The notes under the pieces are model-generated. The model searched no databases and was not told where the DNA came from. It saw nothing but the letters and a program-made list of their open reading frames with translations. A stretch of 64,000 bases of DNA. It comes from a virus. Below, piece by piece: positions 3,317-63,999 of this stretch (positions are counted from its first letter, which is position 1; the number at the start of each line of letters is the position of its first letter). The position numbers and the translations under genes are program-made. The stretch covers positions 4,275-68,274 of IMG/VR virus record IMGVR_UViG_3300025645_000062; one strand, 5' to 3'.

Positions 3317-3317
3317 C

Positions 3318-16700: not shown

Positions 16701-19700
16701 ACTCTCTTTAATAGAAGCAGGAACCAAATCAGATACTTTAATAGTTTTGCTTGCTTGTAAATAAATTTTATCTAAGTGTCTTCTTTGGTAGTATTTATTA
16801 TCTCTACCTATAGAAAGAACACCTGTAAGTTGTGAAAGTATTTCTACTTCAGCATCAGTTAATGCTCCTTTTGCAGAAAGTATACGTAACTTGGAAGTAG
16901 AATCTTTTAGCACATTAGTGTATTTAATAAATTCTTTATAAGCTTTGGTATCTGATTTCTTAATACCACCTATATCATCATTATTATCAATAAGCTCTTT
17001 AATACCTATTTCTAACCCAGATATAGCATTCATTACTTTGTCTCGTAATTGTGCTAAACGATTAGTTTCTTCAGTTGTGTAAGATCTATCTGTAAATCTG
17101 TTATTTAATCTGTCTTCAGAGTTAAGTGGAACATCTGTTATAGGAAAAGTTTTATCCGTAGTTTTGACAATATTAGATGTTTTACCCATTTCAAACATAA
17201 ATGCTTGCAATAAAGTTACACGGTTAACACTATTATCATTGTTTTTAGGGAAATCTGCAGGATTAATCCAACTACCTACAAGACTGCTTAATAGTTTTGT
17301 TAAACTTTGTAATATTGCACCAATAATACCTACAACTTCAGTACCCACTTGATCAGTAATATCTTCCCGTAAATAGGAGTCAACACTCATATCTTCGGGG
17401 TTCTGGTTCAAATGCGCAGCATACTCTTGTATAAGCATATACTCTTTACGTACCCTATCTGAGTCAGTTTTACTAACTGTATTATTAATATCTTGTAATA
17501 CTAACCATAAATTATGTAGGGTAGGTTTACTCACTAGAGTATCTTCAGACAGAGTTAAAAACTTTTGCATATCTTGTTTGAATGCAGCGTACAGTTTATT
17601 CTGTTTAGACGTACCGTTCCCCCCAATTATGTTATTAAGTCCTCCAACCATATTTGCATGAGTTAGCTCATGTTGCATAGCAGTCATAGCTTCAGCAATT
17701 GAGATACCCTCAGGAATATATATAATTGGTGTAAAAGTAATTAAACCTGTTTTTGCATTAGGAGCACTTTTTTCAATAACATGCCTACCTTTAATATTGG
17801 TTGTTAAACCGTACTTAGTAAAATATTTTTTATCTACAATACGAATTACCTGACCATTTAAATTACTTTTAGTTATATTAGAATAATCATACTCTTTATT
17901 CTTCCTGTTCCATACAGGGTTTACTTGAAATAAAGTAGTATTTAATGAAGCAGGTAAACCTGAATCTTTATCAATTTTAGCTCCAAGGTTTACACGGTTA
18001 AGGTTAAAGTCTTTTAAAACTTCAGTAGTAATCTTTATTTCTGTAAAACCTTTTTCTTTACTAAAATCTTTAAAGGTACCTTTTGAAAGAATAATACCTG
18101 CAAGCTTTTCCATCATACTTACTTTATGAGATTTTTCAGATTTCTCAGGAACGTTTTCTAAAATAGGCACTTCAAGACTTAAACTGTCTTGAGTAGCAAT
18201 ACGGTTTTTAAATGATTTTTCAAACTCAACTATTTCAGGTAGTGTTTTAAGTTTGTCTATTTTAGCATCACTTAACCCTGATTCTTGTTGCATCTGGCTC
18301 CAGTTAAAAGAACCATCTGAGTTAATAAGAATAGCCGTACCATCAATACCCGCTAACTGATGAACCTTAATACCTCCATCACTTTTTGCTACATAATCTA
18401 ATCGTGAAATTTCACCTTGTTTAGCAGTTCTATTTAACTTCTGCTGTAAACGTTGTAAATGTTGGGCAATATCACCTGAACCAAGTAAATTAGTGTAATC
18501 TCCTGCTGTAGTTCTACCACCAAGTTCAGTACTTAACTCGTTTAAAAATTCAGCATAATCCGTTGTAAACTCCGCAGTACCACTTTCAAGTAATGAATTT
18601 AAACCTGTGATAATTACTTCCCCCTCAAAAAGAAGAGGCTTAGCGGAGGCTTCGAGAACACCTGTAAGTGTATCCGCTACTTCTTTAACTGGGTCAGCTT
18701 GCATAATCGTAAGTGTTTCAGCTAAATTAGTAATAAAAGCACCAAGAACTGCCTCTGATCCAGAAGAAATATCTTGTGCATCATATACATTCAGATGTAA
18801 GGTGCCTGTAACGGCTTTCATTAGCTTTGTTGTTAATCTTTGCATCTCAGCATCAATTGAAATAATTCCGTTAGGGTTTGCTGTTACACCTGCTTCTTTA
18901 AGAGGGGCAGCACCTGTGTGAACATCTTCAGGTGTTTTTGCTAATATGTCCGACTCAGTATCCACACTAAATACAGGTATTGTTGTTCCTTGCTGCTGTT
19001 TACTATCTTGTGCTCTTGCACGTTTATTAAGGAAAGTTAACCCCTCAATAGCTAAATCCATCTCAGGAAACATAGAAGATAAAGCTTGTTTAATTTTAGA
19101 TAAGTCTTCTTTACTTAATGAAGCTGTTGGAGGTAGTTTTCTTTTCTTAATTACAGCCTTAGTTAGTTTTACTTGAGCCATGTTATATAACGCAACCATC
19201 GTACCTGTTGCCATAGTAACTTGATCAGTTACATCTTTCGAACGGTAAAGTACATCAGATATGGCTCTATCTATAGACTTACCTAAAGTTTCTTTTACAT
19301 GTTTTGTAATATCTTCTTGTTGTTTATCTGTAAGAGTGTAATTAGATAGTTTAACATCATCCATTACAGGCACTGAATTACCTTCCCAAAATACATCGTT
19401 CCAACCTTTTAATTGAATGCGTTCAGGTGAGTTAATAGGGGTACCTATAGCAGCAGATACATCCATATAAAACTTAGCAAGAAAACCCTCACCAGATTTA
19501 GCCCCGTAAATTAAACCTGATACAAGTGCTTTTAATGAACCACCATACACAGTAGATGTAACCCCTGCTTTAGAAGCATTACGTTCAAATATTTCACCAA
19601 AGCCAACAAAAGATACTTGGTCTTTTAAAAATGCCCATGCTTTAGCTGTATCATCAGACAGTTCATCATTAGCTTTCATATTTTTTAAGTTATTTGTAGC

Positions 19701-22700
19701 TTCACCTGAAATAGTCTGGTACATATCCATCATTGCAGGGTCATGATGGGTATCTGTAGCATCTAGGCTATCTTTTAAACCACCCATAGCTAAAAGTCTT
19801 TTAAGGTCGTACCCTTTCGCATCTACAATTCCCATACCATAAGCCCAATTACTATGAAATACCCCGTTAGTTTTACCATCTACTTCGATAGGTAAAGGTT
19901 TTTGAGTGTACCCATTAAAAATTGAATCAAGTGCCTCAATATACTCAACTGTAGGAGCTTTATAGTTTAAACTTTCTTCTCTTTGCCATGCTAAAAACTC
20001 AGGAATAGTCTTAGCTTTACTTAACTTAATTTCTTTACCTAACAAAAATAACTTAGCAAAAGTTTCTTTAAGACTTATTTCGTTAGATTGTTTATCTACT
20101 TTTACACCTAAGCCTAAACCTAATGCCAACACATAATGTTTTAATGCACTAGTAGGGTTAGATTTGTAATTTTTAACTAACTTCGCCCTTGAACCATGGA
20201 CTTTAATGTTTCCACGGTTAAAAGAAGTACGGACTAAAATACGGTGAAGTTTGTTTGCTTGGGGATTAACTTCCCCCTCAAAAAACTGTCTACCATTGGC
20301 AGAAAAAAATGATGAATAATATATTGGAACAGATTTCTTGTAGTAAGGTGACTTTTCGTTTGATGACTCTTCTTGTAAACGAATATACAGCGCATACGCA
20401 CTTGTAAACTCAGCTTTATAACCTTCTTTTTTACCTATTTTAGCTAGTTGATCATTTACATTTAAAGGTAAAATTGTAGTCTCGACTTTATTAATTAAAC
20501 GTGTACCTCCCAATATATCTATATCTTCTGGCTCATGTAAGTATTGTTCTACAAAAGCAGTAGCAGTTGCTTTTAAATCAGTCTTACCATCTACCTTTAC
20601 AAGGACACTTTTAAGCATCAACTCAAATTTAACATTATCTAAGTAAAATGGAGTACTTTCTGTAAGCTCAGCCATTTCTCTGGCCTTCACAGGTAAGTGT
20701 GAATAGTCTGTATTCGGTGGAGTACCTATATGGTTTAATCTATTTCGTTTAACACCATACTCTGCTTTAAGTATTTTAGTATCACCTTTTAATAGTAAAG
20801 AACTTAAATTTACTTCAGGGTTACGCGTATACCCATAATACGATTTATTATTATGTTTTACTGTAACCATATCAACACCTTTAGTATCACCAATCATACG
20901 TGTGACTGCAGAAGCTAAAAAAGTATTTAAAGCAGGTAAATACTGGTTTTGGTCGTAAGCTTCAACTAGTTTTGTGTTACGGGCTACAGCACCACTAATT
21001 ACACTATCTGGGATAAAAGTACCTTTACCTGCAAAAGTAGATTGCAGCGAAGTATTACCTCTATCAATCTTTTCTACATACATTTTAAGCTGCTTACGTG
21101 GTAAGTATTTAGTGTGTCCAATATATTCCATACCTTCAGCATAACTTAAAAACGAAGTCTGAATAAAATGTTCTGGTATGTTCCCATATTCATCTATAAG
21201 TAAAACTGAAACTCTACCCATATTTACACTAGTATTTAGTGGTGTACTTTTAATAGCTTGATGTATGTTGTTTTCAAACTTAGTTTTAAACTGAGCATAG
21301 TCTTGAACCAGTGCCATTACATCCTCTACTAATACATCGTGCTTCTCAGCAAATTCAGCCATAGCTACAGTATTATCTGAAGTAAGATTAAGTATTGAAG
21401 ACATATCCCATAAAGCAGACTCTTTAAATGAACCTAAAGAAGTTTTTAAAGGATTATCTTCTTTAAGTGAATTAAGTAATGCTTTGGCAGGATGGCCATC
21501 AGGCATAGTACGGATATCTTTAGCAAATTTCTGTCTAAAAGATTCTTGAATAGCGGGTAAAGTTTTAATACCCAACCTTTTTTTACCTCCCCTTTTACCT
21601 ACTAAACTTTCCTCAACTAAACTTCCTAGTGTAAAAATACTATCTTGGATATAAGCTTCAACAGTACTTTTTGCAGCGTCCTTAGAAAGAATATTAGTTT
21701 TTATTTCATCAGCAATTTGCTGAGAAATACTTTTAGTAGACTTTGTTTCACCTCTTACAATTGCCTTAAGTACTGCAGGCTTCATACCTATAGCCACAGC
21801 TAAAATATCAAGGTTATATTTAGCAATTGCAATAGTTTCAGCTATTGAATTAATACGTGAATATTGACTATGTGTAGCAGCTTCCATGTCATAAGAAGTT
21901 TTACCTTCTTTTGCCATACGAGCAGATTGCTGTTTAGCAACTTTAACTTCTGTAGTTTTTTGGCTAACTTCTTCTGCTACAAAATACTTACTTCTTACTT
22001 TATTAAATAAAAGAATACTATTTTTAAGGGCTTCCTCTAATTCTTTAACTTGAGTAACTAACTCAACTCGCTCAAGTTTAATTTCATTTAAATTAGATTT
22101 AACTTCTAACTGTTTAGCTGCTACATCTTCTCTATTTGTTTTAGATGTTACTTTAGCTCTAGCTGCTTCACCTTTTAGTTTTTTACGTAAAGTATTATTA
22201 ACTACATATGCTTTAGACAGCTGTCCAAGACGTTTACGTAACGTGCGAATTTCTTGGTACATGGAAGCAAACGCTCTGCGTTTGGTTATATACTTTTTTT
22301 GCTCAACTACTGAACCGCTTATTCTTTCCAATGGTTCAGGTAGTAAATCATTCATAGCTGTAAAGCTCTCAGCAGCAGCCTCAGAAGCTATTACCTCTTC
22401 TGCGGCTAATTGCTTAACTTCTTCAGTTAACACCTCAGAATACGCTTTTAAAGCTTCAGTTGTACGGTCTTCTTGCGAAGATACAAAAGGAGCGTCTGCT
22501 AAAAATAATTTATAAGCATCAAACCAGATAGACTTATTAGCATCTGTAAGTAGCCCTGATTTAACAATATTAGCATATATAGTACCTTTACTGCTTAAAG
22601 GTATATTCTTCATCTTACCTAAGATAAGTTTAAGTATTTCTTCTGCAGGCATGTTTTTAATAACATTTTCTTCAACACCTGTTATTTCACTGATACCCGT

Positions 22701-25700
22701 AACTACTGCAGGAGTAGCTAAGACTGAACCAGATAAAATATCTGTAGGAGTTAAAGTATGTAATACTTTTGTTTTTACTTTAAATACCTCTTGTTTAGTA
22801 GGTGCAATCATACTCATATTTGCTTGTATAAGTTGACTAAGTGCTGTGACACTTTTACTTGAAACACCTAAAAGTTCTACAATGTGTTTTACAAAAGTAT
22901 CTAAAAAACTAGAGTTTAGTTTGTTAACTTTAACTGAACCAAGATAGTTAATAAAATCAGTGTTACTCATTCCCATTACAATAAATTCTTGAATATTATT
23001 TAATGGATAAGCCCACTTAATTGCATCTTCTTTAGATGCTTGTTTTTTAACTTGTTTTAATAAATTTGTAATTTGGGTATAAAATACTTTTTGCTCAGGT
23101 GTATTACTTTCTTTCGGTTTAGCAGAATTCCATAAAAAACTATGAAGCAACTCGTGTAAGATAACCTCACCTTTTAACTTGGGGTCAGTTATGTTATTAG
23201 CAATATATACTTTACCTTCCGTTGCTTTATAAGTACCTAGTGCATGGGAGCCATCAGAATGTTTTATAAGTTTATCTGAGTTAGGTTCTACATAAATAAC
23301 TTCAGTATCTTTAGGTAAAGCGTTTTTTAATGCTTCTGCAACTTCAGTTAAGTTACCATACACACCTGACTCAATTTGTACCGTAAGGATTTCAGCACCA
23401 TTAGTAACAACAGATGTAGAAGCTTTATTATCTTCTTTAATCTTTGACCATACACCTGAACCAGAATCTACTTCCTCGTAACCTTTAAAAGACAAGTATT
23501 GAGCTAATCTACCTTCTCCTGTCTTATTATAACTTCTGTTTCGTGCTTCAAAATTGTCTGCAATAATAGTGGCACCTGCCTCTACTGCTTTATTAACTTC
23601 CTTAGCTGTAGCTGATTGAGCACTAAACTTCTTACCATTCTTCCCATTTACACTTACAAAAACAGTATCGTCTGCAGAATAAACACCTGTATTAGCTTTT
23701 TCTCCCCAAGCTAATCGGTATTCTTCTGTAGACGTATCTTTGGCACCAAAGCCAATAAATTTATTAGCTTGGTCAGACTTCCTTTGGTCTTTATTAAGTA
23801 ACTCTGTAGTTAACCTACCTGAACCAGCGAGCACTACCTTAGTAGGTTCAGCTTTCTTTCTTAACACCACCTGTGCATCATGCTGTATAACATTACCATC
23901 ATTGTCAGTGAGTGTGACTGTAGCAGTTATACGACCATCACTTCCTTCACGAATTTCACTAATTTTAGTTATAACAGTATCTTCAGGCAAAGAATCGAGG
24001 GCTACTTCATACCCTGTTCCTTCAAGACCTACAACAATACCAACAGAAGTGATATCCCTTTGTGTTGTGGGTTTGTCACTTCTATTAGAAGAGAATGTAG
24101 TGGTAGTAATACCATCATCACTTACTTTAGTATTCTTAAAGAATGTACGGGTTCTACCCTTTCTATCCGTAGAGGTAAGAGTTCCCATTGGAGACTCTGT
24201 AGTAGGTTTAGTAACAACTTCTTCTTCAACCTTCTTACCTTCAGGGTCAAGGATGTCCCTAGCCAGTGTATCAATTTGATTTAAGGTATCTAAATCCTTT
24301 GAAACTGCATCAATAGTGCGTTGCAGTCTACCCATACCTTTATAAGTAAAGCTTTTTGAACCTTTACCCATTGCACCAGATGTATCCCATACTGCTTTAC
24401 CTAATGAAGGGTCAGCTTTTAAACCTTCAAGAGCTGCTAGCTTACCAGTCTGGTTAGACTGTAAATAGCCTATAAACAAGTCATAAACAGCTTCTGCTTC
24501 CTGAGTATTACCTTTACCTAAAGCTGTAAGAAATGTGTCTACATGTTTACCTAAAGTACGATCACCTTTACTACCAAATAGTTCAGCACGTACTCTTTCA
24601 GTACCTGTAAGCGGTTTACCTTTAGTATCTACTTCATTGGCTCTAAGTGTTGAGACAAACTCAAATAACTTTTGCTTATCAACATCTTGGGTAGATTGAG
24701 CAAATAGATCAAGAGTTTCCCCTGACAACTGGCTTAGTTTATCTTCAGAATATAAAACTACATCTCCTATAGTCTCGATTAAAGCATCTACTTGTGCTGT
24801 TGAACTATCCTGACCTAGTTCAGTCTTTTGCTTTATTAAAGACATTACTAACTGTTCTGTATCACCTACTTCAATATTATTAATTACTTTAGCTACAGTG
24901 TTATAGTCAGCTTTAGCACTATCTAAAGGGTTAAGAGTCGTAGCTAAGTTAGCAATTGTTTGCGCATCTTTTTCAGATAAATCCGAATTACTAAGTAACT
25001 TAACACCTGCCACAGTTAAATCCGTGTTGTCAGTTTGTGCTTTGTAAAGTGACTGACCAATAGCTTCAAAATCTTTACCATCCTTACGTAAGTTTTCTTC
25101 AGATAAATCTGTATTCAAAGTATGTTCTAGTACTGAATTAACATAAGATTTTACCTCAGCATTATCTGTTTCATAATTTGAATAAGTATCAATAACTTCC
25201 TTAGTTCTACTAGCTACTTCTACCTCATCTTCTACAGGCGCTCTTTCAGGAGCATACCTTTCTATTACATTATTCGGTTCAGCTTTAGAAGTACCTGCCT
25301 CTGGTTCCTTATTTTTTATTGTAGCGTTGTTATTTTCTTCTTGCAGTTCTTGTACAGCTTCAGCTAATTCTGTAGAATTTTGATCAACACGAGCTTGAGA
25401 AAGTTTTTCAACTGCTTTAGTAACAGTTCTTCCTGCACCTGCCATTACACCACCAGATAAACCACCTGCTGCAAGACCTGCACCTGCAGATTCACCTACA
25501 CCTTCAAGTGCATCTTTAGACTCATCACCTTCTTTAACTTGTATATTTGAAACAAGTTGTCCTGCACCCGATTGAACTGTTTCTTCAACTGCTTCAACTG
25601 CTGCGCCTTTAGCGGTTGATTTAATTATACCTTTTTTAACACCTTTATTTAATACGTTACCAAACGTATCTGCAGCACCTGTAGCTTTACCTACTAAAGC

Positions 25701-26666
25701 AGCAATTGAACCAGAAATAATTGCTGTGTCACGAGCACCTTCTTCAGCAAATTGTAAACGTACTTCTTCAAAAGTAGCGTTAGGCATCTTCTTAGTTAAT
25801 TCTTGAAAGTCACTAGACTGTTTAAGTACTTCTGGAGTAAGGTTTAATATTGCATCCCGAGTTTGAATAGCATTATTGGTACCCTCGGACACACCTGTAT
25901 AAACTGCACCTGTTATTCCACCTGCTTTAGTTGCAGCTTTTTGCCCTGCTTTAGCTATAAAAGCTTTTGAAGCAGCACTTTCAGCCACACTTTTACCTAA
26001 CTTTTTCTTTATTCCCGACTTAACTGCAACTTTTGCAGCTCCACCAATAATACCACCAGTTGCAGCCATCGCAACTAGGTCAGCAGAACTCTTAGCAGCC
26101 TCAGAAACAGCAGCTAATGGATTAGTTATGTAATCACCAACCGTACCAAAGAACTCGCTTAGAGACTCTCCTGCGGAGATGTTACCATCACCCATTTGTA
26201 TAGCTTTGCGTTCTGCAGCAGCATTAACAATATTTGCTTTAGCTTGACGTAAATCCATTGAATATTCTTTTTCGGATTCTTCAGCTTCAGCTTGCTGAGT
26301 AGCAACACCTTCCCAACCAAATTTAGATAAAGCATCTGAATTAACTGCATCCCCTATTAAACCTGTTACACCATAACCTGTTTGAGCAAGCCTATCACCA
26401 AATGCAATACCAAGGTCAGTACCTAAATCTTCCATGGTTCCTTGGTTTCTTGTTGCCTTAAATATTCTCTGTTGGTTGAGAAAGTTTCTCATGTCTAGTG
26501 AATTAGCCGTAGGATTTTGAACCATGAACTCCTCAAGAGGAGCTACTAGTTGAGCATCGGTAAAAGCAGTTTGTTTTTTAAGATGAGCTTGACCCACCGC
26601 CTCTGCTTTCGCAGAAGTGATGTTTAAATTCATTGTGCGTTGGAAGAGATTGTCAGGTGTAACCAT
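13767..26666 (-). CDS. Virion-encapsidated RNA polymerase (N4 gp50-like), 4299 aa
   Basis: T7-like motif A DGKTNG (19863-19880), motif B RNASKAGVTSTVYGG (19539-19583), motif C VYDA (~18780); N4-like Gly/Ala-rich N-terminus (EAVEETVQSGAGQLVSN); no Cys seen. Confidence 0.95.
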   Translation of the reverse strand: MVTPDNLFQRTMNLNITSAKAEAVGQAHLKKQTAFTDAQLVAPLEEFMVQNPTANSLDMRNFLNQQRIFKATRNQGTMEDLGTDLGIAFGDRLAQTGYGVTGLIGDAVNSDALSKFGWEGVATQQAEAEESEKEYSMDLRQAKANIVNAAAERKAIQMGDGNISAGESLSEFFGTVGDYITNPLAAVSEAAKSSADLVAMAATGGIIGGAAKVAVKSGIKKKLGKSVAESAASKAFIAKAGQKAATKAGGITGAVYTGVSEGTNNAIQTRDAILNLTPEVLKQSSDFQELTKKMPNATFEEVRLQFAEEGARDTAIISGSIAALVGKATGAADTFGNVLNKGVKKGIIKSTAKGAAVEAVEETVQSGAGQLVSNIQVKEGDESKDALEGVGESAGAGLAAGGLSGGVMAGAGRTVTKAVEKLSQARVDQNSTELAEAVQELQEENNNATIKNKEPEAGTSKAEPNNVIERYAPERAPVEDEVEVASRTKEVIDTYSNYETDNAEVKSYVNSVLEHTLNTDLSEENLRKDGKDFEAIGQSLYKAQTDNTDLTVAGVKLLSNSDLSEKDAQTIANLATTLNPLDSAKADYNTVAKVINNIEVGDTEQLVMSLIKQKTELGQDSSTAQVDALIETIGDVVLYSEDKLSQLSGETLDLFAQSTQDVDKQKLFEFVSTLRANEVDTKGKPLTGTERVRAELFGSKGDRTLGKHVDTFLTALGKGNTQEAEAVYDLFIGYLQSNQTGKLAALEGLKADPSLGKAVWDTSGAMGKGSKSFTYKGMGRLQRTIDAVSKDLDTLNQIDTLARDILDPEGKKVEEEVVTKPTTESPMGTLTSTDRKGRTRTFFKNTKVSDDGITTTTFSSNRSDKPTTQRDITSVGIVVGLEGTGYEVALDSLPEDTVITKISEIREGSDGRITATVTLTDNDGNVIQHDAQVVLRKKAEPTKVVLAGSGRLTTELLNKDQRKSDQANKFIGFGAKDTSTEEYRLAWGEKANTGVYSADDTVFVSVNGKNGKKFSAQSATAKEVNKAVEAGATIIADNFEARNRSYNKTGEGRLAQYLSFKGYEEVDSGSGVWSKIKEDNKASTSVVTNGAEILTVQIESGVYGNLTEVAEALKNALPKDTEVIYVEPNSDKLIKHSDGSHALGTYKATEGKVYIANNITDPKLKGEVILHELLHSFLWNSAKPKESNTPEQKVFYTQITNLLKQVKKQASKEDAIKWAYPLNNIQEFIVMGMSNTDFINYLGSVKVNKLNSSFLDTFVKHIVELLGVSSKSVTALSQLIQANMSMIAPTKQEVFKVKTKVLHTLTPTDILSGSVLATPAVVTGISEITGVEENVIKNMPAEEILKLILGKMKNIPLSSKGTIYANIVKSGLLTDANKSIWFDAYKLFLADAPFVSSQEDRTTEALKAYSEVLTEEVKQLAAEEVIASEAAAESFTAMNDLLPEPLERISGSVVEQKKYITKRRAFASMYQEIRTLRKRLGQLSKAYVVNNTLRKKLKGEAARAKVTSKTNREDVAAKQLEVKSNLNEIKLERVELVTQVKELEEALKNSILLFNKVRSKYFVAEEVSQKTTEVKVAKQQSARMAKEGKTSYDMEAATHSQYSRINSIAETIAIAKYNLDILAVAIGMKPAVLKAIVRGETKSTKSISQQIADEIKTNILSKDAAKSTVEAYIQDSIFTLGSLVEESLVGKRGGKKRLGIKTLPAIQESFRQKFAKDIRTMPDGHPAKALLNSLKEDNPLKTSLGSFKESALWDMSSILNLTSDNTVAMAEFAEKHDVLVEDVMALVQDYAQFKTKFENNIHQAIKSTPLNTSVNMGRVSVLLIDEYGNIPEHFIQTSFLSYAEGMEYIGHTKYLPRKQLKMYVEKIDRGNTSLQSTFAGKGTFIPDSVISGAVARNTKLVEAYDQNQYLPALNTFLASAVTRMIGDTKGVDMVTVKHNNKSYYGYTRNPEVNLSSLLLKGDTKILKAEYGVKRNRLNHIGTPPNTDYSHLPVKAREMAELTESTPFYLDNVKFELMLKSVLVKVDGKTDLKATATAFVEQYLHEPEDIDILGGTRLINKVETTILPLNVNDQLAKIGKKEGYKAEFTSAYALYIRLQEESSNEKSPYYKKSVPIYYSSFFSANGRQFFEGEVNPQANKLHRILVRTSFNRGNIKVHGSRAKLVKNYKSNPTSALKHYVLALGLGLGVKVDKQSNEISLKETFAKLFLLGKEIKLSKAKTIPEFLAWQREESLNYKAPTVEYIEALDSIFNGYTQKPLPIEVDGKTNGVFHSNWAYGMGIVDAKGYDLKRLLAMGGLKDSLDATDTHHDPAMMDMYQTISGEATNNLKNMKANDELSDDTAKAWAFLKDQVSFVGFGEIFERNASKAGVTSTVYGGSLKALVSGLIYGAKSGEGFLAKFYMDVSAAIGTPINSPERIQLKGWNDVFWEGNSVPVMDDVKLSNYTLTDKQQEDITKHVKETLGKSIDRAISDVLYRSKDVTDQVTMATGTMVALYNMAQVKLTKAVIKKRKLPPTASLSKEDLSKIKQALSSMFPEMDLAIEGLTFLNKRARAQDSKQQQGTTIPVFSVDTESDILAKTPEDVHTGAAPLKEAGVTANPNGIISIDAEMQRLTTKLMKAVTGTLHLNVYDAQDISSGSEAVLGAFITNLAETLTIMQADPVKEVADTLTGVLEASAKPLLFEGEVIITGLNSLLESGTAEFTTDYAEFLNELSTELGGRTTAGDYTNLLGSGDIAQHLQRLQQKLNRTAKQGEISRLDYVAKSDGGIKVHQLAGIDGTAILINSDGSFNWSQMQQESGLSDAKIDKLKTLPEIVEFEKSFKNRIATQDSLSLEVPILENVPEKSEKSHKVSMMEKLAGIILSKGTFKDFSKEKGFTEIKITTEVLKDFNLNRVNLGAKIDKDSGLPASLNTTLFQVNPVWNRKNKEYDYSNITKSNLNGQVIRIVDKKYFTKYGLTTNIKGRHVIEKSAPNAKTGLITFTPIIYIPEGISIAEAMTAMQHELTHANMVGGLNNIIGGNGTSKQNKLYAAFKQDMQKFLTLSEDTLVSKPTLHNLWLVLQDINNTVSKTDSDRVRKEYMLIQEYAAHLNQNPEDMSVDSYLREDITDQVGTEVVGIIGAILQSLTKLLSSLVGSWINPADFPKNNDNSVNRVTLLQAFMFEMGKTSNIVKTTDKTFPITDVPLNSEDRLNNRFTDRSYTTEETNRLAQLRDKVMNAISGLEIGIKELIDNNDDIGGIKKSDTKAYKEFIKYTNVLKDSTSKLRILSAKGALTDAEVEILSQLTGVLSIGRDNKYYQRRHLDKIYLQASKTIKVSDLVPASIKESDPSYVTHLRMAADVHTLLFKTDDVNRVARFAAYSEVSPELKAALKTVDIKEATPTHSNWFEKVRQVIRDAVVKSANALSGIRAGDASLQTQMTIDNMFLSKKLFDNKFNNKLVNYERKLDASFQFVGKQFAKTARVVISKISGKEIPQGLSVSDMILDYTPRGEGETTVPGFWRNNLLEMLKRTQSHSVKVDRRVDIGKSKVDAVHTGTARGIKNILTDIFSKTLTKDESKAIVEGDIKADLGSLIEEHGMSVKDVQMLLEDASTRNTRINILQNQILNTTVPNVTKAHQTMMINEAKALGYRLVQGGATRGMGYPNAYSISRLTGTSAEVEYSPTLDSTLVPMLDQLAALSAIQYMDSGTREILAELYDSQGDAFNVIHAQIKANQTDLVNRYGLGILNQVPKGNTPDITDVNTNIRIVSKSQLAEFPSHEVLHEVAAPHSDEKHYVIYNEVGGAVPYVSGAISLIDSSISLAAKGAVRSEGLNLWDSGEITSNNAKAYTAAMSSKIREPSPIDKGGYVPNLNQSGQIVSYKYELPRAEYTRLAGVSGDWSDMLSEYAGRLQAEKLGTFNNVELVKELYAEYTSSSNKKAWVRVSVDSPNRQVREAWQLAPQEMKDTAKTYFGEPVIYVHRDDINQALGFREVSIKALFRPKGFDEETYMRTVTELMKKIFHPKLINILRKAELGTQEVVSIGKDLVVVKSVVVPAANLMSNINQLVGRGVPVEDVYSNGLLGVNAKREYDTISERLYILQAKLKIVTDVEEKAKLNSEFVLLKQSRESNPLFRLISEEGMNPSVIEELGEESKRDGFRKKFLENLSAKFEDALPENNAFVNVGKEVAITQDSSVYKLLNEGLELGDFVSKFILYTHLTTQEGMSHEDAIEQARSEFINYNRNQNPLMDYANKLGVTPFFKYFMRKHPVMWATIKKSPSRTIVQILAAIQLGVPSLFETSLINKDLVAATGTVNFLGMASDAHLLL

Positions 26667-38075: not shown

Positions 38076-38105
38076 TTTAAATCCTTCTGAGCACAAATAG
38101 GATAC

Positions 38106-38115
38106 ATACTAACAT
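38106..38115 (-). promoter_or_regulatory. Putative late promoter motif ATGTTAGTAT upstream of the portal/capsid operon
   Basis: Identical intergenic 10-mer at 38106, 43509 and 56604 in the same orientation; resembles an extended -10 (TGnTAGTAT). Confidence 0.45.
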
Positions 38116-43468: not shown

Positions 43469-43508
43469 AAGTAAACATCAACCCGAAAAATAAACACAAA
43501 GAACATAG

Positions 43509-43518
43509 ATACTAACAT
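43509..43518 (-). promoter_or_regulatory. Putative late promoter motif upstream of the lysis cassette
   Basis: Minus strand TTGTTT-17 nt-TAGTAT with TG extension; same 10-mer as at 38106 and 56604. Confidence 0.45.
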
Positions 43519-51779: not shown

Positions 51780-52047
51780 GAATTACACCTTAGGTATTCC
51801 TTAGTATTTCCCCAAGTATACACAGAACCAGAGGTAATAAGTAACATCTACTTGAAATATCCTGTGTAAGCTCGCCTATACAGTAAAATATGCTCAGAAT
51901 TTATAGAAGTGAATCGATATACCAAATACATTTAAAGTCCCTTATATAGCCTGTGAGGAACGATTTCGCCTATAGGGAAAATAGCTAGAGTATTACACAT
52001 GCAGTATTCACACCTGCAGACCTTCAAAATCTAAATACCCCCCCCCT

Positions 52048-52091
52048 ATCTTGTTTACTGCGTAAACGAAGATCTATGAGCAATTTCGCTC
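52048..52091 (+). promoter_or_regulatory. Early vRNAP hairpin promoter P1
   Basis: ATCTT-GTTTAC-TGC-GTAAAC-G-AAGAT-CTATGAG; template strand forms a C-GCA-G triloop as in N4 early promoters. Confidence 0.8.
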
Positions 52092-52115: not shown

Positions 52116-52367
52116 ATGTTCAAAACTACATATAAAGCTGTGAAGCTCCCTCTTAATTCTTTACATTTCCAACTCAATAAGGCGATTGATCAGCAATCAG
52201 CCAAGCAAGAGATCCTTTCTCAAAATGCTGAGCAAGAACTCAGTATTAAGGTAAACCAATGGTTTGCTGATGCCGCATCAATAGAAGCAGAGGCCAAAGT
52301 GGCCATCACTACCTGTCCCAAAACTGCAGCCTTCATGACTGCAAGAGCCAATGCCAAAGCGAAGTAA
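52116..52367 (+). CDS. First early protein (N4 gp1 position)
   Basis: 83-aa ORF between promoter P1 and a terminator. Confidence 0.65.
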   Translation: MFKTTYKAVKLPLNSLHFQLNKAIDQQSAKQEILSQNAEQELSIKVNQWFADAASIEAEAKVAITTCPKTAAFMTARANAKAK

Positions 52368-52373
52368 TTAATA

Positions 52374-52400
52374 ACCTACCCTTCGGGGTAGGTAACTTTA
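52374..52400 (+). terminator. Terminator with cUUCGg tetraloop
   Basis: ACCTACCC-TTCG-GGGTAGGT. Confidence 0.75.
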
Positions 52401-52404
52401 AAAC

Positions 52405-52625
52405 TTACCCACACCTAACACACACAAGCCTAGACACTAGCCCTGAGACTCAAGACTCAAGACTAGTGATTCAAGACTTAACCACACCTAACACCAGAGA
52501 TATCCAAGATATCCGTATAGGTAAGAGAGTCAGGACTGCTGGAGTATACTGTTAACAGTTACACACAGCTACCTTACAAGCCTCTCGCTTAACCTAAGCC
52601 TTCCCTAATACCTAACGTACACGCT
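52405..52625. repeat. C/A-rich non-coding region with short direct repeats
   Basis: ACACCTAACAC x2, TCAAGACT x3, AGATATCC x2, several CCTAA. Confidence 0.6.
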
Positions 52626-52634
52626 GCACTGTTT

Positions 52635-52682
52635 AGCTTTCTGACTGCGTCAGAGAAGCTCTATGAGTATACTTCCATACTC
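52635..52682 (+). promoter_or_regulatory. Early vRNAP hairpin promoter P2
   Basis: AGCTT-TCTGAC-TGC-GTCAGA-G-AAGCT-CTATGAG; same geometry as P1 with a different stem sequence. Confidence 0.8.
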
Positions 52683-52702
52683 TTTAAGTCTAGGAGACTA
52701 AC

Positions 52703-52894
52703 ATGCATTTATATCAATCATGGGACGATTCGTATTATCTCACTGAGGATTTTGACGGAACAGAGGGGCATAAGCTCCAGTTAGTGGGTACAACCACAGT
52801 TGCGGAAATACACGCAATTGTAGGTTACAAAGAAACAATTCAAGTTTATCGTGCAATGCACGGTATGCATTCCTCAATTGAGGTGTTCATATGA
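52703..52894 (+). CDS. Early hypothetical protein
   Basis: AGGAG RBS, downstream of P2. Confidence 0.7.
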   Translation: MHLYQSWDDSYYLTEDFDGTEGHKLQLVGTTTVAEIHAIVGYKETIQVYRAMHGMHSSIEVFI

Positions 52895-54190: not shown

Positions 54191-54210
54191 GAGCCTCGTA
54201 GAGGCTTTGT
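54191..54210 (+). terminator. Hairpin upstream of RNAP II genes
   Basis: AGCCTC-GTA-GAGGCT-TTGTT. Confidence 0.5.
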
Positions 54211-54247: not shown

Positions 54248-55180
54248 ATGTTTATGTACGAGCAACAAATACGGAACGAACGAAAGTTCGCTAAAGAAAA
54301 CAAGGATCAAGTATTGCTAAATCATAAAGACACTCTTATGAAGCCTTGCCTAGCTTATTTTGAGGACTTGATGAGCAAACCTGTGCCATTTACAAATGAT
54401 GCAAATGAACTTCGTAAAGACCTCATTGAAATTATGCCAGCAGTTTATAGTATGAATGCCAAAAACGTTATTTGGCGCATTCTTTCAACTGTTATATTGG
54501 ATAGACAGATTACGCTTCAAGCTGTATTAGGTATGTATTTTGAAAGTATTGATGTAGACATGCCTTATCGTAAAGGTAGAGTTATCGAACCTTTCATAGA
54601 TGCTGTATTGGCAAGCCCTTACGTTGAATTAAAACAAATGGGAAAGTACTTACATCTTGTGTGTAACCAGAACATTAATTTAGATGTATCTAATTATGCG
54701 TATGTACTGCCTTCATTAACAAATGAACCAGTGTTAACTAACAAAGGTGCAGGGTATGAAACTACTCCTTTCCACGTTATTACAGGTGGTAAGTTAAAAC
54801 AACATGACAACGAGTTATGCTTAGACCATATCAATCGGTTGAATGCTGTTAATTACACAGCTGATACTCGTATTATGGAATTCACTACACCAACCTTTAG
54901 TACTAAACCTAAGTACTTGGAAAAAGTAAGTAGGTACGAGACAGAAGTTGAAGTAGAAAGTAGACGTAAACAGTTTAATTTGTGGAAAGATCAACTACCT
55001 CAAAAACTTGAAGTACTTGAAGAGACAGGTAATAAGTTTCATTTCAAAAATAGATACTGTATTCGTGGTAGAACTTATGTCAAAGCATGGCATTTAGATT
55101 ACATCGGAAACAAGTTCATTAGAGCACTTGTCAATACCTCTGTTAAAGAGAAAGTTGAAGGTGCAAATAAATACTTATAA
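54248..55180 (+). CDS. RNA polymerase II subunit 1 (N4 gp15-like)
   Basis: HDNELCLDHINRLN, FHFKNRYCIRGRTY, G.KF.RA: N-terminal half of a split T7-like RNAP. Confidence 0.85.
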   Translation: MFMYEQQIRNERKFAKENKDQVLLNHKDTLMKPCLAYFEDLMSKPVPFTNDANELRKDLIEIMPAVYSMNAKNVIWRILSTVILDRQITLQAVLGMYFESIDVDMPYRKGRVIEPFIDAVLASPYVELKQMGKYLHLVCNQNINLDVSNYAYVLPSLTNEPVLTNKGAGYETTPFHVITGGKLKQHDNELCLDHINRLNAVNYTADTRIMEFTTPTFSTKPKYLEKVSRYETEVEVESRRKQFNLWKDQLPQKLEVLEETGNKFHFKNRYCIRGRTYVKAWHLDYIGNKFIRALVNTSVKEKVEGANKYL

Positions 55181-55191
55181 GGAATAAAATT

Positions 55192-56433
55192 ATGTATATG
55201 TTTAGCGGTTTTGAATGGTTGTTAATCGACCTAGCAAGTAGATTTGGTAAAGATAAAGATACTTATATTGAACGTATCCAGTGGGCTGAAGAGTTACTTC
55301 CTTTACTTAACGTAGAGACAGAAAGCCAGCTCAAAGCTAACCTTGAACCATGGGTTGATAATGCTGATGATAAGCCTCATTTTGTAGGTGCTGCTTTAGC
55401 AATATGGGATACTATTCAAAACAGTACTTCTAATTGGATGGTGTCACAAGATAGTGCCTCAAGTGGAGCACAGTTAATGTCCTGTATGACTAAGTGCCAT
55501 ACGGGTATGTCTAACACAGGTGTACTAGGTACTGATGTACCTGACTTGTACACAACTGTTAATGATAAGATGGGTGAAAACGGTTCTAAGTTACCTCGTA
55601 AAGTTCTTAAGCAGGGTATGATACCTCATATGTACGCTTCTACTGTTTCACCTAAACGTATCTTTGCAGAAAGTTATCCTAACTTTCTTAGAGCCTATGG
55701 TGAAACTGTACCTAGAGCACAAATCTTATCTGATCTACTTGTAGATGCATGGGACAGTAATGCCACAGAACATGTGGTAACTGCACCTGATGGATTTGTA
55801 GCTGTCATGCCTGTTATTGTACAAAAACATAAAATCATACCTTTTAAAGACCATTCATATAAGTACGTTTACAGTGCAAAAGGTACTAAACCTAAAGGAA
55901 AAGCTAAAGGTACCAAAGCATTATCTGCAAATACAACTCATACGTATGATGCATATATCTTAAGGGAACTTAATCGTAGATGTAACTATTCGTACGTACA
56001 GGTTACAGCTGCACTGAATGCACTTGAGAACCCTAAATTAGGAAAAGCAAATCAATGTAAAGCAGTTAAATTGAAAGAGCTTCAGAAGCTTTCAGAAGAG
56101 TTTAACCAAGTATCAGTTGTAGCTTTAGAATACATTGATATAAATACTGCTGGATGTGTATCAGAAAACTACAGGAACCAGTTAATAGAAATACTCGAAC
56201 AAATGTTACTTTCAGATTCATTTGAAATTAAGAATGTTCATGATGATTTCGCTTGTTTACCTAATTATGTTTCTCATATGAAGTTTATGTACAACTTACT
56301 TCTTAAAGAAACTTACCTAGGTAATTGGATATATACTGTTCTCGAAAAGTTAACTGGTAAAGCTTACCCTGTATCAAAAATTGATATGGATATAGCTGAT
56401 CAAATACTTGATGCACCTTATTCAGTCTCTTAA
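55192..56433 (+). CDS. RNA polymerase II subunit 2 (N4 gp16-like)
   Basis: FSGFEWLLID, motif A DSASSGAQ, motif B RKVLKQGMIPHMY, ANTTH..DA, motif C VHDDF. Confidence 0.9.
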   Translation: MYMFSGFEWLLIDLASRFGKDKDTYIERIQWAEELLPLLNVETESQLKANLEPWVDNADDKPHFVGAALAIWDTIQNSTSNWMVSQDSASSGAQLMSCMTKCHTGMSNTGVLGTDVPDLYTTVNDKMGENGSKLPRKVLKQGMIPHMYASTVSPKRIFAESYPNFLRAYGETVPRAQILSDLLVDAWDSNATEHVVTAPDGFVAVMPVIVQKHKIIPFKDHSYKYVYSAKGTKPKGKAKGTKALSANTTHTYDAYILRELNRRCNYSYVQVTAALNALENPKLGKANQCKAVKLKELQKLSEEFNQVSVVALEYIDINTAGCVSENYRNQLIEILEQMLLSDSFEIKNVHDDFACLPNYVSHMKFMYNLLLKETYLGNWIYTVLEKLTGKAYPVSKIDMDIADQILDAPYSVS

Positions 56434-56449
56434 TTAATACACGTTGCGT

Positions 56450-56464
56450 GCTCCCTTCGGGAGC
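56450..56464. terminator. GC-rich hairpin after RNAP II subunit 2
   Basis: GCTCC-CTTCG-GGAGC. Confidence 0.6.
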
Positions 56465-56600
56465 TTAGCTAGAAGTTAACTTTAAATAAATAAGGAATTG
56501 CGTATGGTGTACTGAAAAGAAGGTATTCTAAGCATACAAGGTCAATCAGATGCCTATCATGATTGATTAACGAGACAATGAATAGGCAAGTTAACTCACC
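56450..56600 (-). ncRNA. Candidate structured small RNA
   Basis: Non-coding; closing stem GAGTTAACTT/AAGTTAACTT with two internal stems; upstream ATGTTAGTAT motif and downstream GC hairpin. Confidence 0.35.
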
Positions 56601-56603
56601 TAA

Positions 56604-56613
56604 ATACTAACAT
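56604..56613 (-). promoter_or_regulatory. Third copy of the putative late promoter motif, pointing into a non-coding region
   Basis: ATACTAACAT on the + strand, identical to 38106 and 43509. Confidence 0.4.
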
Positions 56614-56672
56614 CAAAAAAAACCCACTTTTATACTATACTTAGCCTAAGTGCTAAACCAAGGAATTATATT

Positions 56673-56879
56673 ATGTTTATACGTCAAGAAAATATCATTA
56701 TTAACACTCAAGTTTTACCTATCATTACTTCTCAAGGTAGTGATATCCGTTTCCAAAGAGATACTAATCTCCATTCTCCGTACACCAAATTAAAATTTAC
56801 CAACATTATTGAAGCTGATAAAGCTTTCAATTTAATATATTCTGAACTGGCTTCAGGCAGTTTAGTAGTATTACTTTAG
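56673..56879 (+). CDS. Hypothetical protein
   Basis: AAGGA RBS, 68 aa. Confidence 0.65.
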   Translation: MFIRQENIIINTQVLPIITSQGSDIRFQRDTNLHSPYTKLKFTNIIEADKAFNLIYSELASGSLVVLL

Positions 56880-56901
56880 CCTTTAGGTAAGGAAATTTAA
56901 A

Positions 56902-57096
56902 ATGCAAAATAAAATAGCAGTAATAATTCTGATTCTGTCAATAATTGCAGCAATCTTTTTAGATTATAATAAAGCACAGTTAAAGTATGAAAGACATATT
57001 CTAGAAACTGAATGCGTAGAAAAACTCCTAGAAGTTAACGTTTCCCGTAAAGATATTTATGTAGGTGAAGGTACCTGTTACATAGTACACAATTAG
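56902..57096 (+). CDS. Small protein with N-terminal TM/signal segment
   Basis: TAAGGA RBS, hydrophobic N-terminus, two Cys. Confidence 0.65.
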   Translation: MQNKIAVIILILSIIAAIFLDYNKAQLKYERHILETECVEKLLEVNVSRKDIYVGEGTCYIVHN

Positions 57097-57142
57097 CTAC
57101 ATAGTATATATAGCAATAAAACTCTTTAGATATCAATAACTT

Positions 57143-57189
57143 AAGCACCCTTTTGCCCCTCATATTCGAGGGAAAAGGGTGCTTTTTTT
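57143..57189 (+). terminator. Long rho-independent terminator
   Basis: AAGCACCCTTTT-GC-CCCTC-ATATTC-GAGGG-AAAAGGGTGCTT-TTTTT. Confidence 0.8.
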
Positions 57190-57241
57190 CTCGTATCTGT
57201 GCTAAAATACGGGAATATTTATCAATAACGAGGGGAGTATT

Positions 57242-57827: not shown

Positions 57828-58127
57828 ATGAAAAAGTCAAATGTATTTGGACAACAAAAGTGGAAAAATGATGACTTAAGATTCATCATGAAAAACAGCC
57901 TTGAGATGTCCCTGACAGAGTTATCTCTTGAACTCAATATATCTGAGTCACGTATCCAACATATGTGCAACACGCGTGGTTTTCCATGCTTCAGTGAGGT
58001 ACCTAGAAGCTGGGCAAAGAAAGGTTACATTGCAGGTAAAAATGGTTATGCCATGTATCCTTATAAAAGTGAATTCAGAGAGTCTGCTTCGGTAAGCAAT
58101 GAAATGCTTCAACTTGAGAGTAGTTAA
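57828..58127 (+). CDS. Hypothetical protein with HTH-like segment
   Basis: W..DD...MSLTELSLELNISESRIQ; AGGA RBS. Confidence 0.6.
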   Translation: MKKSNVFGQQKWKNDDLRFIMKNSLEMSLTELSLELNISESRIQHMCNTRGFPCFSEVPRSWAKKGYIAGKNGYAMYPYKSEFRESASVSNEMLQLESS

Positions 58128-62077: not shown

Positions 62078-62443
62078 TTAAGTTAATTCTGTTTCTACGG
62101 GTTTAAATAAATCATGATTAGCATATAACCACTGACCTTGTTCTTTACTAAAGACTGTTAAAATACCAATATGCAGATCAACCTCTGAACCATCTTCAAC
62201 TGGTTCAAGCTCAGTAATTAAATCATCTGCTATTTGGGTTAAATCATTAATTGATAAACCTTCTAATTCTGTATCATTCTCAGGATTAAAACCTAACTTA
62301 TCAACTCGATAGATTTCACCAAGATAAGCATTAGCTTCATTAGACGTTAAACCTTTTAATACCAGTTTATTGTCTGCGTAGTTTGCACCTGTACCTAAAA
62401 ACTGTGAAACATCTGTTTGCATTACTGTATATAAATAACTCAT
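62078..62443 (-). CDS. Acidic hypothetical protein
   Basis: 121 aa, AAGGT RBS, co-oriented with the lectin-like gene. Confidence 0.65.
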   Translation of the reverse strand: MSYLYTVMQTDVSQFLGTGANYADNKLVLKGLTSNEANAYLGEIYRVDKLGFNPENDTELEGLSINDLTQIADDLITELEPVEDGSEVDLHIGILTVFSKEQGQWLYANHDLFKPVETELT

Positions 62444-62463
62444 ATTCTTTACCTTATTGTTTA

Positions 62464-63999
62464 TTAAAGTTCAACCCATTCGCCATCTATAACAGGTTTG
62501 CTATATTCTTTGTGATTTGATTCTGGAATGTTTTTATACTTTACTGCGTTTGTAATTTCTTTGACTGTAAACTCAGATAACGTAATTGTACTAGGGCCAC
62601 TCCCACCATGTAATAACGATATAAGACCGTTTTGATTCGCTGTAATATAAAATCTTTTTAAACCAAAAGGACTTAGATTTTGTGCTTGAGTTGTTAAGTA
62701 AGTTATTTGAGTGCCAAATACAACGGCAACATTATTACTTAAATTTGTAGCTGATAAAACTTTAAACTCCACTAAATATGTTTTACCCGCAATAACCGAG
62801 CCTGTGTTTGTAATTTTAGGGTCTGTTCCGTCTGATGGTCTATCAAGAGTAAGTATATTATTTGCAATTGTTGCTGACTCTGTACCTGTCGCTGTAACAG
62901 TCCAATTAGAGTAACTTACAAAATTACCATTTATAACCAACTCACTTCCAAACACATTCTCTGCAGAGTATTCAATATCCTGTAACTGCTGTGCTTGTTC
63001 GTAGTTTGTTATTTCTTTTACTGATACGTTGTCTATTGTACAAGAGGAGTTGATAGTATTTCTTGAAAATGCAATATAAGAATGACCTGCAACAGGCGTG
63101 ACTATAATTGTTTTTTCCCCAACTGTTGAAATGTTAATAAAAGGCTCTACACTATTACTACCATTCCATATTAAAACTTTTATATTACCTGTTATTGCAA
63201 TAACGTTAAATTTAATTACGTAGGTTTTTTCACCCTGCAAACCTAAATCTTGTTGCAAAGGTGAAAAATTAGAAGTTGTTGGCATTGAAGCTACACCATT
63301 ACTAATAGTCCAAAAGTTTGATTTGTCCCAATCACTATCCGTAGCAAAATCTCCGTTTACAACTTTTTCAGCATTTAATATATAGTTATTAGTTGCCGTT
63401 GAATTATCTAAAGCAAACGTAGTTGTTACTGGTTCTGAGCCAGATAAATCTGTGAACTTAGAATTGGCTAATATACCATCAAAGTAAAGACTACCATTTG
63501 ACCACACACCTATTAAACCAAATGATGCTGATGAAGCAGTAGTTGTTCCTGTACCATCTGGTACATCATCAACAAACAAAGAAAGTGTTGTTCCTACCTT
63601 TGTTATTTTGATTTTGTGTAGATCACCATCTGCAACAACAATCGTTCCATTGAAAGCTGCACCAAAAATACTTAAGCCTATTTCAGCAGTTTCACTTCTT
63701 ACAAAAATGTAATCTTGTGCTATTTCTGAAGTAGCACAAATCAAATGACCTTCAAAAGATGATGTAATAAGTTCAAGTTCAATTTCAAAATCACCTGTAA
63801 ATACGACAGGCTTTACTATTTTATAATAAGAATTCAAAACAGGATCAAGAATTGATAACCACCTAGTAGGGGGAATATAAAAATCTGCTACCTCGATTAT
63901 TTCTTTAACTGATACGTTGTCAATTGAGCCGTGAAAACCTGCCGAAAAGTTTGCTTCAAACCTAATATTCAACGTCGATGCAACACCCTGTATTACTTG
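62464..63999 (-). CDS. Repeat protein with LamG/concanavalin-like and carbohydrate-binding-like modules (5' end outside window)
   Basis: Frame is open to the window edge; DGDLHKIKITKVGTTLSLFVD LamG-like; repeated V.NG.F...W ... IDNVSVKEI modules. Confidence 0.7.
   Translation of the reverse strand, partial: QVIQGVASTLNIRFEANFSAGFHGSIDNVSVKEIIEVADFYIPPTRWLSILDPVLNSYYKIVKPVVFTGDFEIELELITSSFEGHLICATSEIAQDYIFVRSETAEIGLSIFGAAFNGTIVVADGDLHKIKITKVGTTLSLFVDDVPDGTGTTTASSASFGLIGVWSNGSLYFDGILANSKFTDLSGSEPVTTTFALDNSTATNNYILNAEKVVNGDFATDSDWDKSNFWTISNGVASMPTTSNFSPLQQDLGLQGEKTYVIKFNVIAITGNIKVLIWNGSNSVEPFINISTVGEKTIIVTPVAGHSYIAFSRNTINSSCTIDNVSVKEITNYEQAQQLQDIEYSAENVFGSELVINGNFVSYSNWTVTATGTESATIANNILTLDRPSDGTDPKITNTGSVIAGKTYLVEFKVLSATNLSNNVAVVFGTQITYLTTQAQNLSPFGLKRFYITANQNGLISLLHGGSGPSTITLSEFTVKEITNAVKYKNIPESNHKEYSKPVIDGEWVEL

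Follow-up and report, generated by a model that had tools for sequence, protein, structure and literature searches.

The non-coding gap behind the RNAP II genes of an uncultured phage is best read, in our analysis, as a conserved + strand regulatory junction that also carries a probable convergent late promoter, from which a read-through antisense RNA would be made; we give this reading a probability of about 0.45. The gap lies in the window, by which we mean the whole stretch of 64,000 nucleotides that was analysed (bases 4275-68274 of a 68,274-nt virus contig), and any transcription across it, together with its timing and its effect, we infer from the DNA sequence. The original prediction for the same place was a discrete, structured - strand RNA of about 150 nt that would be made late, run from TGTTAGTAT to the GCUCCCGAAGGGAGC hairpin and pair in trans, through its AAUUCCUUA tract, with the ribosome sites of early and middle genes. 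The defining features of such a trans-acting anti-RBS small RNA failed wherever they were testable, and we consider its existence unlikely.

Genome context and contents of the gap

The phage is N4-like (Schitoviridae-type). No DNA match to isolated phages was found for the window, and the best protein identity to isolates is 37% only, the nearest being Vibrio N4-like phages. The layout of the genes around the gap and the coordinates of its features are given in Table 1. RNAP II-L, on whose homologues PF00940 is annotated, is the gene that any leftward transcript from the gap would meet head-on. The region of the terminator that closes the next two-gene unit folds with a z of -3.5. Two further sequences could be aligned to the gap, a marine contig from a close relative (L014, RNAP II-L 86% identical, found by profile-guided scans) and a third variant, the contig X14 of a public run, which covers 56419-56835.

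Table 1. Coordinates, in the window, of the features of the gap and of the genes around it
Feature	Position	Strand	Details
Virion RNA polymerase gene	13767-26666	-	4299 aa
Late gene block	up to 51779	-	
Early/middle genes	from about 52100	+	
RNAP II genes	54248-55180 and 55192-56433		split, T7-like; phrog_2166, phrog_2051
RNAP II large-subunit gene (RNAP II-L)	55192-56433	+	413 aa; phrog_2051, E 1.5e-80
GC-rich hairpin	56450-56464	+	GCTCCC-TTC-GGGAGC; 17 nt past the RNAP II-L stop codon
Box 1, 3' arm of stem 1	56473-56482	no strand	AAGTTAACTT; palindromic
Orphan translation start	56491-56515	+	TAAGGAATT, 4 nt, ATG GTG TAC TGA
Stem 3 arms	56502-06 and 56533-37		GTATG / CATAC
Conserved non-coding core	56504-56612	no strand	specific to this lineage
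Alternative repeat	56542-48 and 56560-66		TCAATCA / TGATTGA
Stem 2 inverted repeat	56551-56588	no strand	TGCCTATCAT (56551-56560) / ATGAATAGGCA (56578-56588); overlaps the alternative repeat
Box 2, 5' arm of stem 1	56588-56596	no strand	AAGTTAACT; palindromic
Late-gene motif	56604-56613	-	ATGTTAGTAT; predicted leftward start near 56597
Conserved leader of the next unit	56620-56672	+	small hairpin TTAGC...GCTAA; ribosome site AAGGAATT (56660-67)
Two small genes	56673-56879 and 56902-57096	+	function not assigned
Canonical terminator closing the two-gene unit 56673-57096	57143-57191		17 pairs, then U run

The elements that the original prediction had listed are all in the DNA. The gap (56434-56672, 239 nt) is free of coding sequence, with no internal ORF of at least 25 aa and no ribosome site before any of the small ORFs on either strand. 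The leftward late-operon motif, both arms of stem 1, the inverted repeats of stems 2 and 3 and the alternative pairing are present, as are the - strand hairpin GCTCC-CGAAG-GGAGC (the complement of the + strand hairpin in Table 1), the AATTCCTTATTTATTT tract of the - strand at the place claimed for it, and AAGGAA-type ribosome sites before genes 671, 13272, 55192, 56673 and 56902. No curated RNA family was recognised for the candidate small RNA: Rfam 15 gave 0 matches over the whole window, and permissive filters over 56380-56720 gave 4 matches, all far under gathering (the best reaching 21.8 versus 38 bits). A tRNA search gave no match.

At 52037-52053, nine C followed by TATCTT match the coliphage N4 record at its left end (about 32-50). 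The physical left terminus probably lies near position 52000 of the window, and the assembly is probably permuted.

The hairpin behind RNAP II-L

The small RNA was supposed to end at the hairpin 56450-56464, and a discrete RNA of about 150 nt with this 3' end found no backing, since no U tract follows the hairpin, no terminator is flagged there and the hairpin belongs to a class that is oriented along the + strand. Indeed, a T run directly after the hairpin is absent on both strands, the sequence continuing as TTAGCTAG on the + strand and as ACGCAACGTG on the - strand (past 56464-56450), and the hairpin was not flagged by a terminator scan of both strands. Read as an intrinsic terminator of the + strand, it shows the stable hairpin just past the stop codon and lacks the T run. 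The hairpin of L014 is followed by TTCGTTAG, again with no T run on either strand.

To define the class, we scanned up to 260 nt past the RNAP II-L stop codon for perfect stems of at least 5 bp with at least 4 G/C pairs and a 3-nt loop. Such hairpins were found behind RNAP II-L in 11 of 18 loci (the window, L005, L007, L008, L011, L014, L015, L016, L017, L021 and L020, the last doubtful as a relative at 24% identity), versus 0.136 per 260 nt elsewhere in the same loci. The misses were L002, L003 (with only 55 nt available, and a 5-nt-loop hairpin visible by eye), L006, L009 (imperfect stem), L013 (4-nt loop), L019 and N4; left out of the 18 were L004, whose match stops at residue 251, L010, which is the same as L009 here, L012, which is the other end of the contig of L002, and L018, which ends inside the gene. 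On the coding strand the loop reads TTC, TCC or TAC in 10 of the 11 hairpins, and the outer stems covary among loci (GCTCCC, GCTTCC, GGTGCC, CTACCC). The class also occurs in relatives that lack the conserved core, which counts against the small-RNA reading.

A T run does follow the hairpin in L015, in L009/L010 and in N4 itself, at the same place behind RNAP II-L, and because of it the hairpin looks like a terminator in these phages. The hairpin of the window shares with these terminators its position directly after the stop codon, and differs from them in the T run, found only in L015, L009/L010 and N4.

The build of the hairpin is, on the other hand, close to that of promoters used by the N4 virion RNA polymerase. 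The determinants of these promoters, as given in a review of N4 polymerases, are a template-strand loop with 5' G and 3' A, C:G closure, a purine at -11 and G at -10, with further determinants in G at -8 of the template and C templating +1 (PMC4496689). On the template strand the window hairpin reads GCTCC-C-GAA-G-GGAGC, with C:G closure, a purine at -11, G at -10 and C at -9, in agreement with the N4 pattern. The three N4 promoters P1-P3 read GTTGC-TTC-GCAAC, AAGAAGC-TCC-GCTTCTT and AAGCTGC-TCC-GCAGCTT in the N4 record, with a G at loop centre +11 in all three. Like them, the window hairpin has a stem in the range of 5-7 bp, a 3-nt T-Y-C loop on the coding strand (G-R-A on the template) and a G at loop centre +11 (56468), the place where C would template the start; this G is also found at +11 in L014 and L017, and at +12 or +13 in L015, L016 and L021. 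Unlike them, it has C and not G at template position -8 (56460, the same in L014-L017), it is followed by TTAGCTAG without the TT(A/T)TGG that follows the N4 hairpins, and it stands behind the RNAP II genes, whereas P1-P3 stand in front of early genes. It also resembles, by description, the middle promoters of phage LUZ7, GC-rich hairpins that precede a G start by about 15 bp (PMC9163698). The hairpin thus appears to be tied to rightward transcription, either as an N4-type promoter hairpin or as the 3'-end hairpin of + strand transcripts; it is the sole hairpin in the window with a stem of at least 5 bp and a TYC triloop, so that its promoter class cannot be shown within this genome.

Another hairpin, AGCCTC-GTA-GAGGCT, was observed at 54192-54206, 42 nt ahead of the RNAP II small-subunit start. 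The N4 promoter P3 lies 41 nt ahead of the RNAP1 gene, and the sequence that follows it is similar to that following the hairpin at 54192-54206, whose loop is unlike the N4 type.

Orphan translation start and palindromic boxes

The tract that had been taken for a dedicated anti-RBS seed is the complement of a + strand ribosome site with its ATG and three codons. It mirrors TAAGGAATT-4 nt-ATG, an outcome that the original prediction had itself named as its refutation. Both the ribosome-site word and the spacing of this orphan start are as in real gene starts of the phage, the word TAAGGAATT also standing before genes 671 and 55192 and AAGGAATT before gene 56673. L014 and X14 both retain the orphan start and differ only within its spacer, at 56500 and 56503.

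Nor did the tract show the expected selectivity for early and middle mRNAs. When it was paired with the translation starts of 24 + strand and 20 - strand genes, the median duplex energies were -6.1 and -6.1 kcal/mol (Mann-Whitney p 0.46), so that early/middle and late genes could not be told apart, and late genes such as 48760 and 28942 scored like the early genes that had been listed.

An extension of the mini-ORF by TGA read-through was tried and rejected: three in-frame TGA are present, but a TAA stands in that frame of L014, and table 11 gives an intact 4299-aa polymerase gene.

The two boxes that form stem 1 belong to a local cluster. Exact AAGTTAACT occurs five times in the window, and four of these copies fall inside 56347-56596. 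Clusters of GTTAAC at the end of the RNAP II-L gene are also found in L014, L015 (5 in the 375 nt of 3027-3401, 1 elsewhere) and L021 (3 in 120 nt, 195-311, 1 elsewhere). Because the boxes are clustered in L015 and L021 although the conserved core is absent from both, they would be independent of the proposed small RNA; their clustering points to a DNA-level or leader-level signal, and the AAGTTAACT palindromes are probably protein-binding sites or paired boxes.

An 11-mer, CTTACTAAAGG, was seen in the gap behind the RNAP II gene once in L015 (3132-3147) and twice in L021 (311-326 and 351-361), directly after a GTTAAC box at two of these three places. In these two phages it may serve as a promoter; the gaps of the window do not contain it.

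The leftward late-gene motif

The idea of a late-made convergent RNA held in one of its parts, the leftward motif being real and conserved, and not in the other, the discrete end of the RNA. The 10-mer ATGTTAGTAT reads TG-n-TAGTAT, which we take to be an extended -10-like shape. It has three exact copies in the window, all of them on the - strand and intergenic; the other two (38106-15 and 43509-18) precede the starts of late genes by 30 and 40 nt, and ahead of the first late operon there is a weaker copy, ATGTTACTTAT. By number alone the 9-mer does not stand out (3 copies versus 1.64 expected, with 20 of 100 shuffles reaching 3). A two-hexamer promoter scan did not flag the leftward motif, which has no -35, and reported a + strand promoter-like CTAACA-18-TATACT at 56607-56636. 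In L014 and X14 the motif TGTTAGTAT is kept and 5-7 bases just upstream of it differ, and the gap of L015 contains ATTTTAGTAT, likewise on the - strand.

Since the motif is kept and edges a strongly conserved block, a late - strand transcript that runs against the RNAP II genes is plausible, and the copy of TGTTAGTAT in the gap is a probable convergent late promoter. Its identity with two late-gene sites and its conservation in relatives speak for the small-RNA reading as well.

The two late-gene copies (38091-38115 and 43494-43518) were seen to agree over about 24 nt, as ATGTTAGTAT-n-TAT-nn-T-n-TTTGTG, with 20 of 24 positions identical. Beyond the 10-mer, these sites have 14 nt in common (10 identical), a part that the gap copy lacks. 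Because of this longer motif, the real late promoter may exceed the 10-mer.

Another candidate, ATTTAGGTGA (56605-56596, -), presumably resembles the upstream half of a single-subunit-polymerase promoter; it was rejected, its near-matches numbering 17 versus 8.2 expected and lying mostly inside - strand coding sequence.

Contigs of the RNA libraries X12/X13 cover 56584-56734, 56741-56891, 56250-56400 and 56786-57098 (unstranded, depth about 2, DNA carry-over possible); the absence of contigs from 56412-56583 carries no weight either way. The first of them spans the predicted - strand start, and this suits a second explanation, in which the gap is purely a + strand or DNA-level element made of a leader or operator for rightward transcription, with sites for a box-binding protein, a promoter of the middle or early class and a mini-ORF that loads ribosomes, TGTTAGTAT being inactive or coincidental. 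We regard this explanation as possible, if somewhat unlikely. The conserved ribosome site, ATG and three codons, the GTTAAC boxes that cluster at the gene end in four phages, two of them without the core, the N4-promoter build of the hairpin with its G at centre +11 and the hairpin form of the LUZ7 middle promoters (PMC9163698) all agree with it, as does a weak HTH match in the nearby ORF 57828-58127 (HTH_6, E 0.005, below cut-off). It is opposed by the exact 10-mer, whose occurrence in the gap by chance has a probability of about 0.002 (an estimate from base frequencies), by the + strand leader 56468-56680, which gave no fold signal (z +0.17) and in this also counts against the junction reading that we prefer, and by a search for a + strand motif common to the gap and to other + strand gaps, which found none.

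Fold of the candidate RNA

Compared with dinucleotide shuffles, the - strand folds with a z of -2.43 (4 of 200 as good) and the + strand with a z of -1.96 (9 of 200). The predicted transcript 56597-56447 reaches -33.0 kcal/mol (z -2.91, 1 of 200 shuffles as good), and its MFE structure, which is also the centroid, reproduces the three-way junction that had been claimed; this agrees with the small-RNA reading. The fold is hence modestly better than that of shuffled controls (z -2.4 to -2.9), but among windows of the phage itself it reaches only the 5th-16th percentile. In GC-adjusted energy, it ranks at the 16th (-) and 9th (+) percentile of 3194 phage windows of 159 nt, and among 220 random 151-nt phage windows an equal or lower z was found in 5% (-) and 10.5% (+). 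Against the phage's own background the fold is ordinary, and that 5-16% of random windows fold at least as well, with the + strand similar, weighs against a small RNA.

Strand-specific structure did not emerge either. As the stems are built from inverted repeats and a palindrome, they serve both strands equally, and the consensus folds of the three sequences have nearly equal energies, -35.74 on the - strand (covariation term -0.89) versus -35.47 on the + strand (term +1.1). Covariation in relatives had been proposed as a check, and across the three sequences no change is compensatory. Four of the 41 pairs of the - strand MFE vary in this set of only three sequences: two are kept on the - strand through G-U (56597-56473 and 56543-56500), and two are lost on the - strand but could still form on the + strand (56576-56565 and 56538-56508), again at odds with the small RNA. 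Stem 2 gives no covariation because its arms are invariant in all three sequences, the variable sites 56571 and 56576 falling between them.

Two further observations on the fold were made. The tract is mostly unpaired in the - strand fold, as a pairing seed would be, but its AAUU is paired in the MFE of 56597-56447. Variable sites occupy 4 of 82 paired versus 13 of 69 unpaired positions (Fisher P 0.009), and the conserved blocks coincide with stems, tract and hairpin while the linkers vary. Such avoidance of pairs would also be expected of a structured RNA; it follows as well if the conserved blocks are the hairpin, the box, the ribosome site and the promoter.

A non-coding stretch of 337 nt at 52368-52704, between the first early ORF (52116-52367, 83 aa) and ORF 52703, folds far better than the candidate RNA and is the top outlier of the window-wide energy scan. 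Its + strand reaches -82.8 kcal/mol (z -4.44, 0 of 100 shuffles as good) and its - strand a z of -3.38; at its beginning stands an 8-bp hairpin whose loop is TTCG (52374-52393). The sequence AACTTTAAA, which follows both TTCG-type hairpins, is not enriched (82 found versus 84 expected).

Conservation of the gap

The core differs from L014 at 2 of 109 positions, versus 32 of 145 (22%) at the fourfold sites of RNAP II-L (binomial P 8e-10), and from X14 at 4 positions. It ends at the TGTTAGTAT motif. The leader of the next unit is 96-100% identical to L014, and the variable parts are the linkers 56466-56472 and 56483-56490, the spacer 56500-56503 and positions 56613-56619. This conservation argues for a function of the core at the nucleotide level. 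The core is absent from L015, L016, L017 and L021, relatives at 47-57% identity. RNAP II-L relatives at 81% and 79% are P0003 and P0004, and those at 56-60% complete the set P0003-P0009; single-protein and profile scans of viral contigs for more close relatives found only relatives at 37% or less. Three exact core words had 0 matches in viral contigs, and a two-arm pattern had 3 matches in genome contigs, where about 3 are expected by chance (an estimate), none of them with further similarity.

Identity to L014 is patchy, ranging from 48% to 100% per 50 nt over 3.3 kb. Because other stretches of 50-100 nt also reach 96-100%, the identity of the core could partly reflect mosaic recombination. 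In X14, the differences (8 substitutions and 2 indels) are confined to 56500-56640, with 56641-56835 free of them. Downstream of RNAP II-L the relatives are hypervariable, each carrying its own uncharacterised gene. These three observations would suit a recombination scar, in which a former first middle gene was replaced with its ribosome site and start codon left behind, the rest being neutral and shared as a recent mosaic block; such a scar is made very unlikely by the low divergence of the core relative to the fourfold sites of the adjacent gene, by the conserved block stopping exactly at the motif and by the inverted repeats, which are intact in three independent sequences.

Discussion

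We propose that the gap serves as a control junction, with the early RNAP II genes on one side and the small + strand operon that follows on the other, and that most of the apparent - strand small RNA would consist of + strand or DNA-level signals. The hairpin 56450-56464 would act on rightward transcription, as a hairpin promoter or a 3'-end hairpin; the two AAGTTAACT palindromes would probably be binding sites or paired boxes; the orphan start, with its ribosome site, ATG and three codons, would account for the "anti-RBS" tract; and the conserved core of about 110 nt would lead into the leader of gene 56673. In the opposite direction, TGTTAGTAT probably lets the late transcription machinery start near 56597. 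Because no terminator was found for it, the leftward RNA would read through, crossing the junction into antisense of the RNAP II-L 3' end, and it would act in cis, by duplex formation or polymerase collision, and not as a trans-acting anti-RBS small RNA.

To our knowledge, the shut-off of early and middle genes in N4-like phages is poorly understood, and almost no promoters have been mapped outside N4 and LUZ7. The gap provides leads from an uncultured freshwater/marine lineage, namely a conserved hairpin of the N4-promoter type, a cluster of palindromic boxes that relatives share and a candidate late promoter in convergent orientation. Should the leftward RNA prove real, it would show antisense control of a phage RNA polymerase gene in a simple form; otherwise the region would be an ordinary promoter/leader junction. 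A bolder version, in which a late back-to-back promoter gives a non-coding RNA that carries a free anti-Shine-Dalgarno tract, is antisense to the 3' end of the RNAP II mRNA and shuts the early/middle programme, strikes us as improbable; if true, it would be an RNA-based early-to-late switch new to this phage family.

A parallel among well-known systems is the OOP RNA of lambda, which is made from a short convergent promoter and is antisense to the 3' end of the mRNA of a regulatory gene; OOP ends at a terminator of its own, and its effect is proven to depend on RNase III. The gap resembles it in a candidate convergent promoter whose RNA would be antisense to the 3' end of the mRNA of a regulatory gene, and differs from it in that no terminator was found for the leftward RNA.

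Nearer relatives offer a second comparison. The LUZ7 study, which thus gives a precedent for a leftward transcript from the gap, describes late starts that are mostly on the Crick strand and also lie inside early regions, with antisense transcription occurring, and late non-coding RNAs of less than 250 nt, small-RNA candidates between orf69 and orf70 (PMC9163698). The original statement that nothing of this kind had been described for N4-like phages thus needs a qualification in view of these LUZ7 candidates, which also lend some favour to the small-RNA reading; they belong to another locus, not behind the RNAP II genes, and the likeness is one of description only (PMC9163698).

Two - strand ORFs (one of 121 aa, the other of more than 511 aa and cut by the contig end) were also noticed at 62078-63999, within the + strand middle region. 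The larger has weak family matches only, and the pair recalls the Crick-strand late genes that are inserted in the early region of LUZ7.
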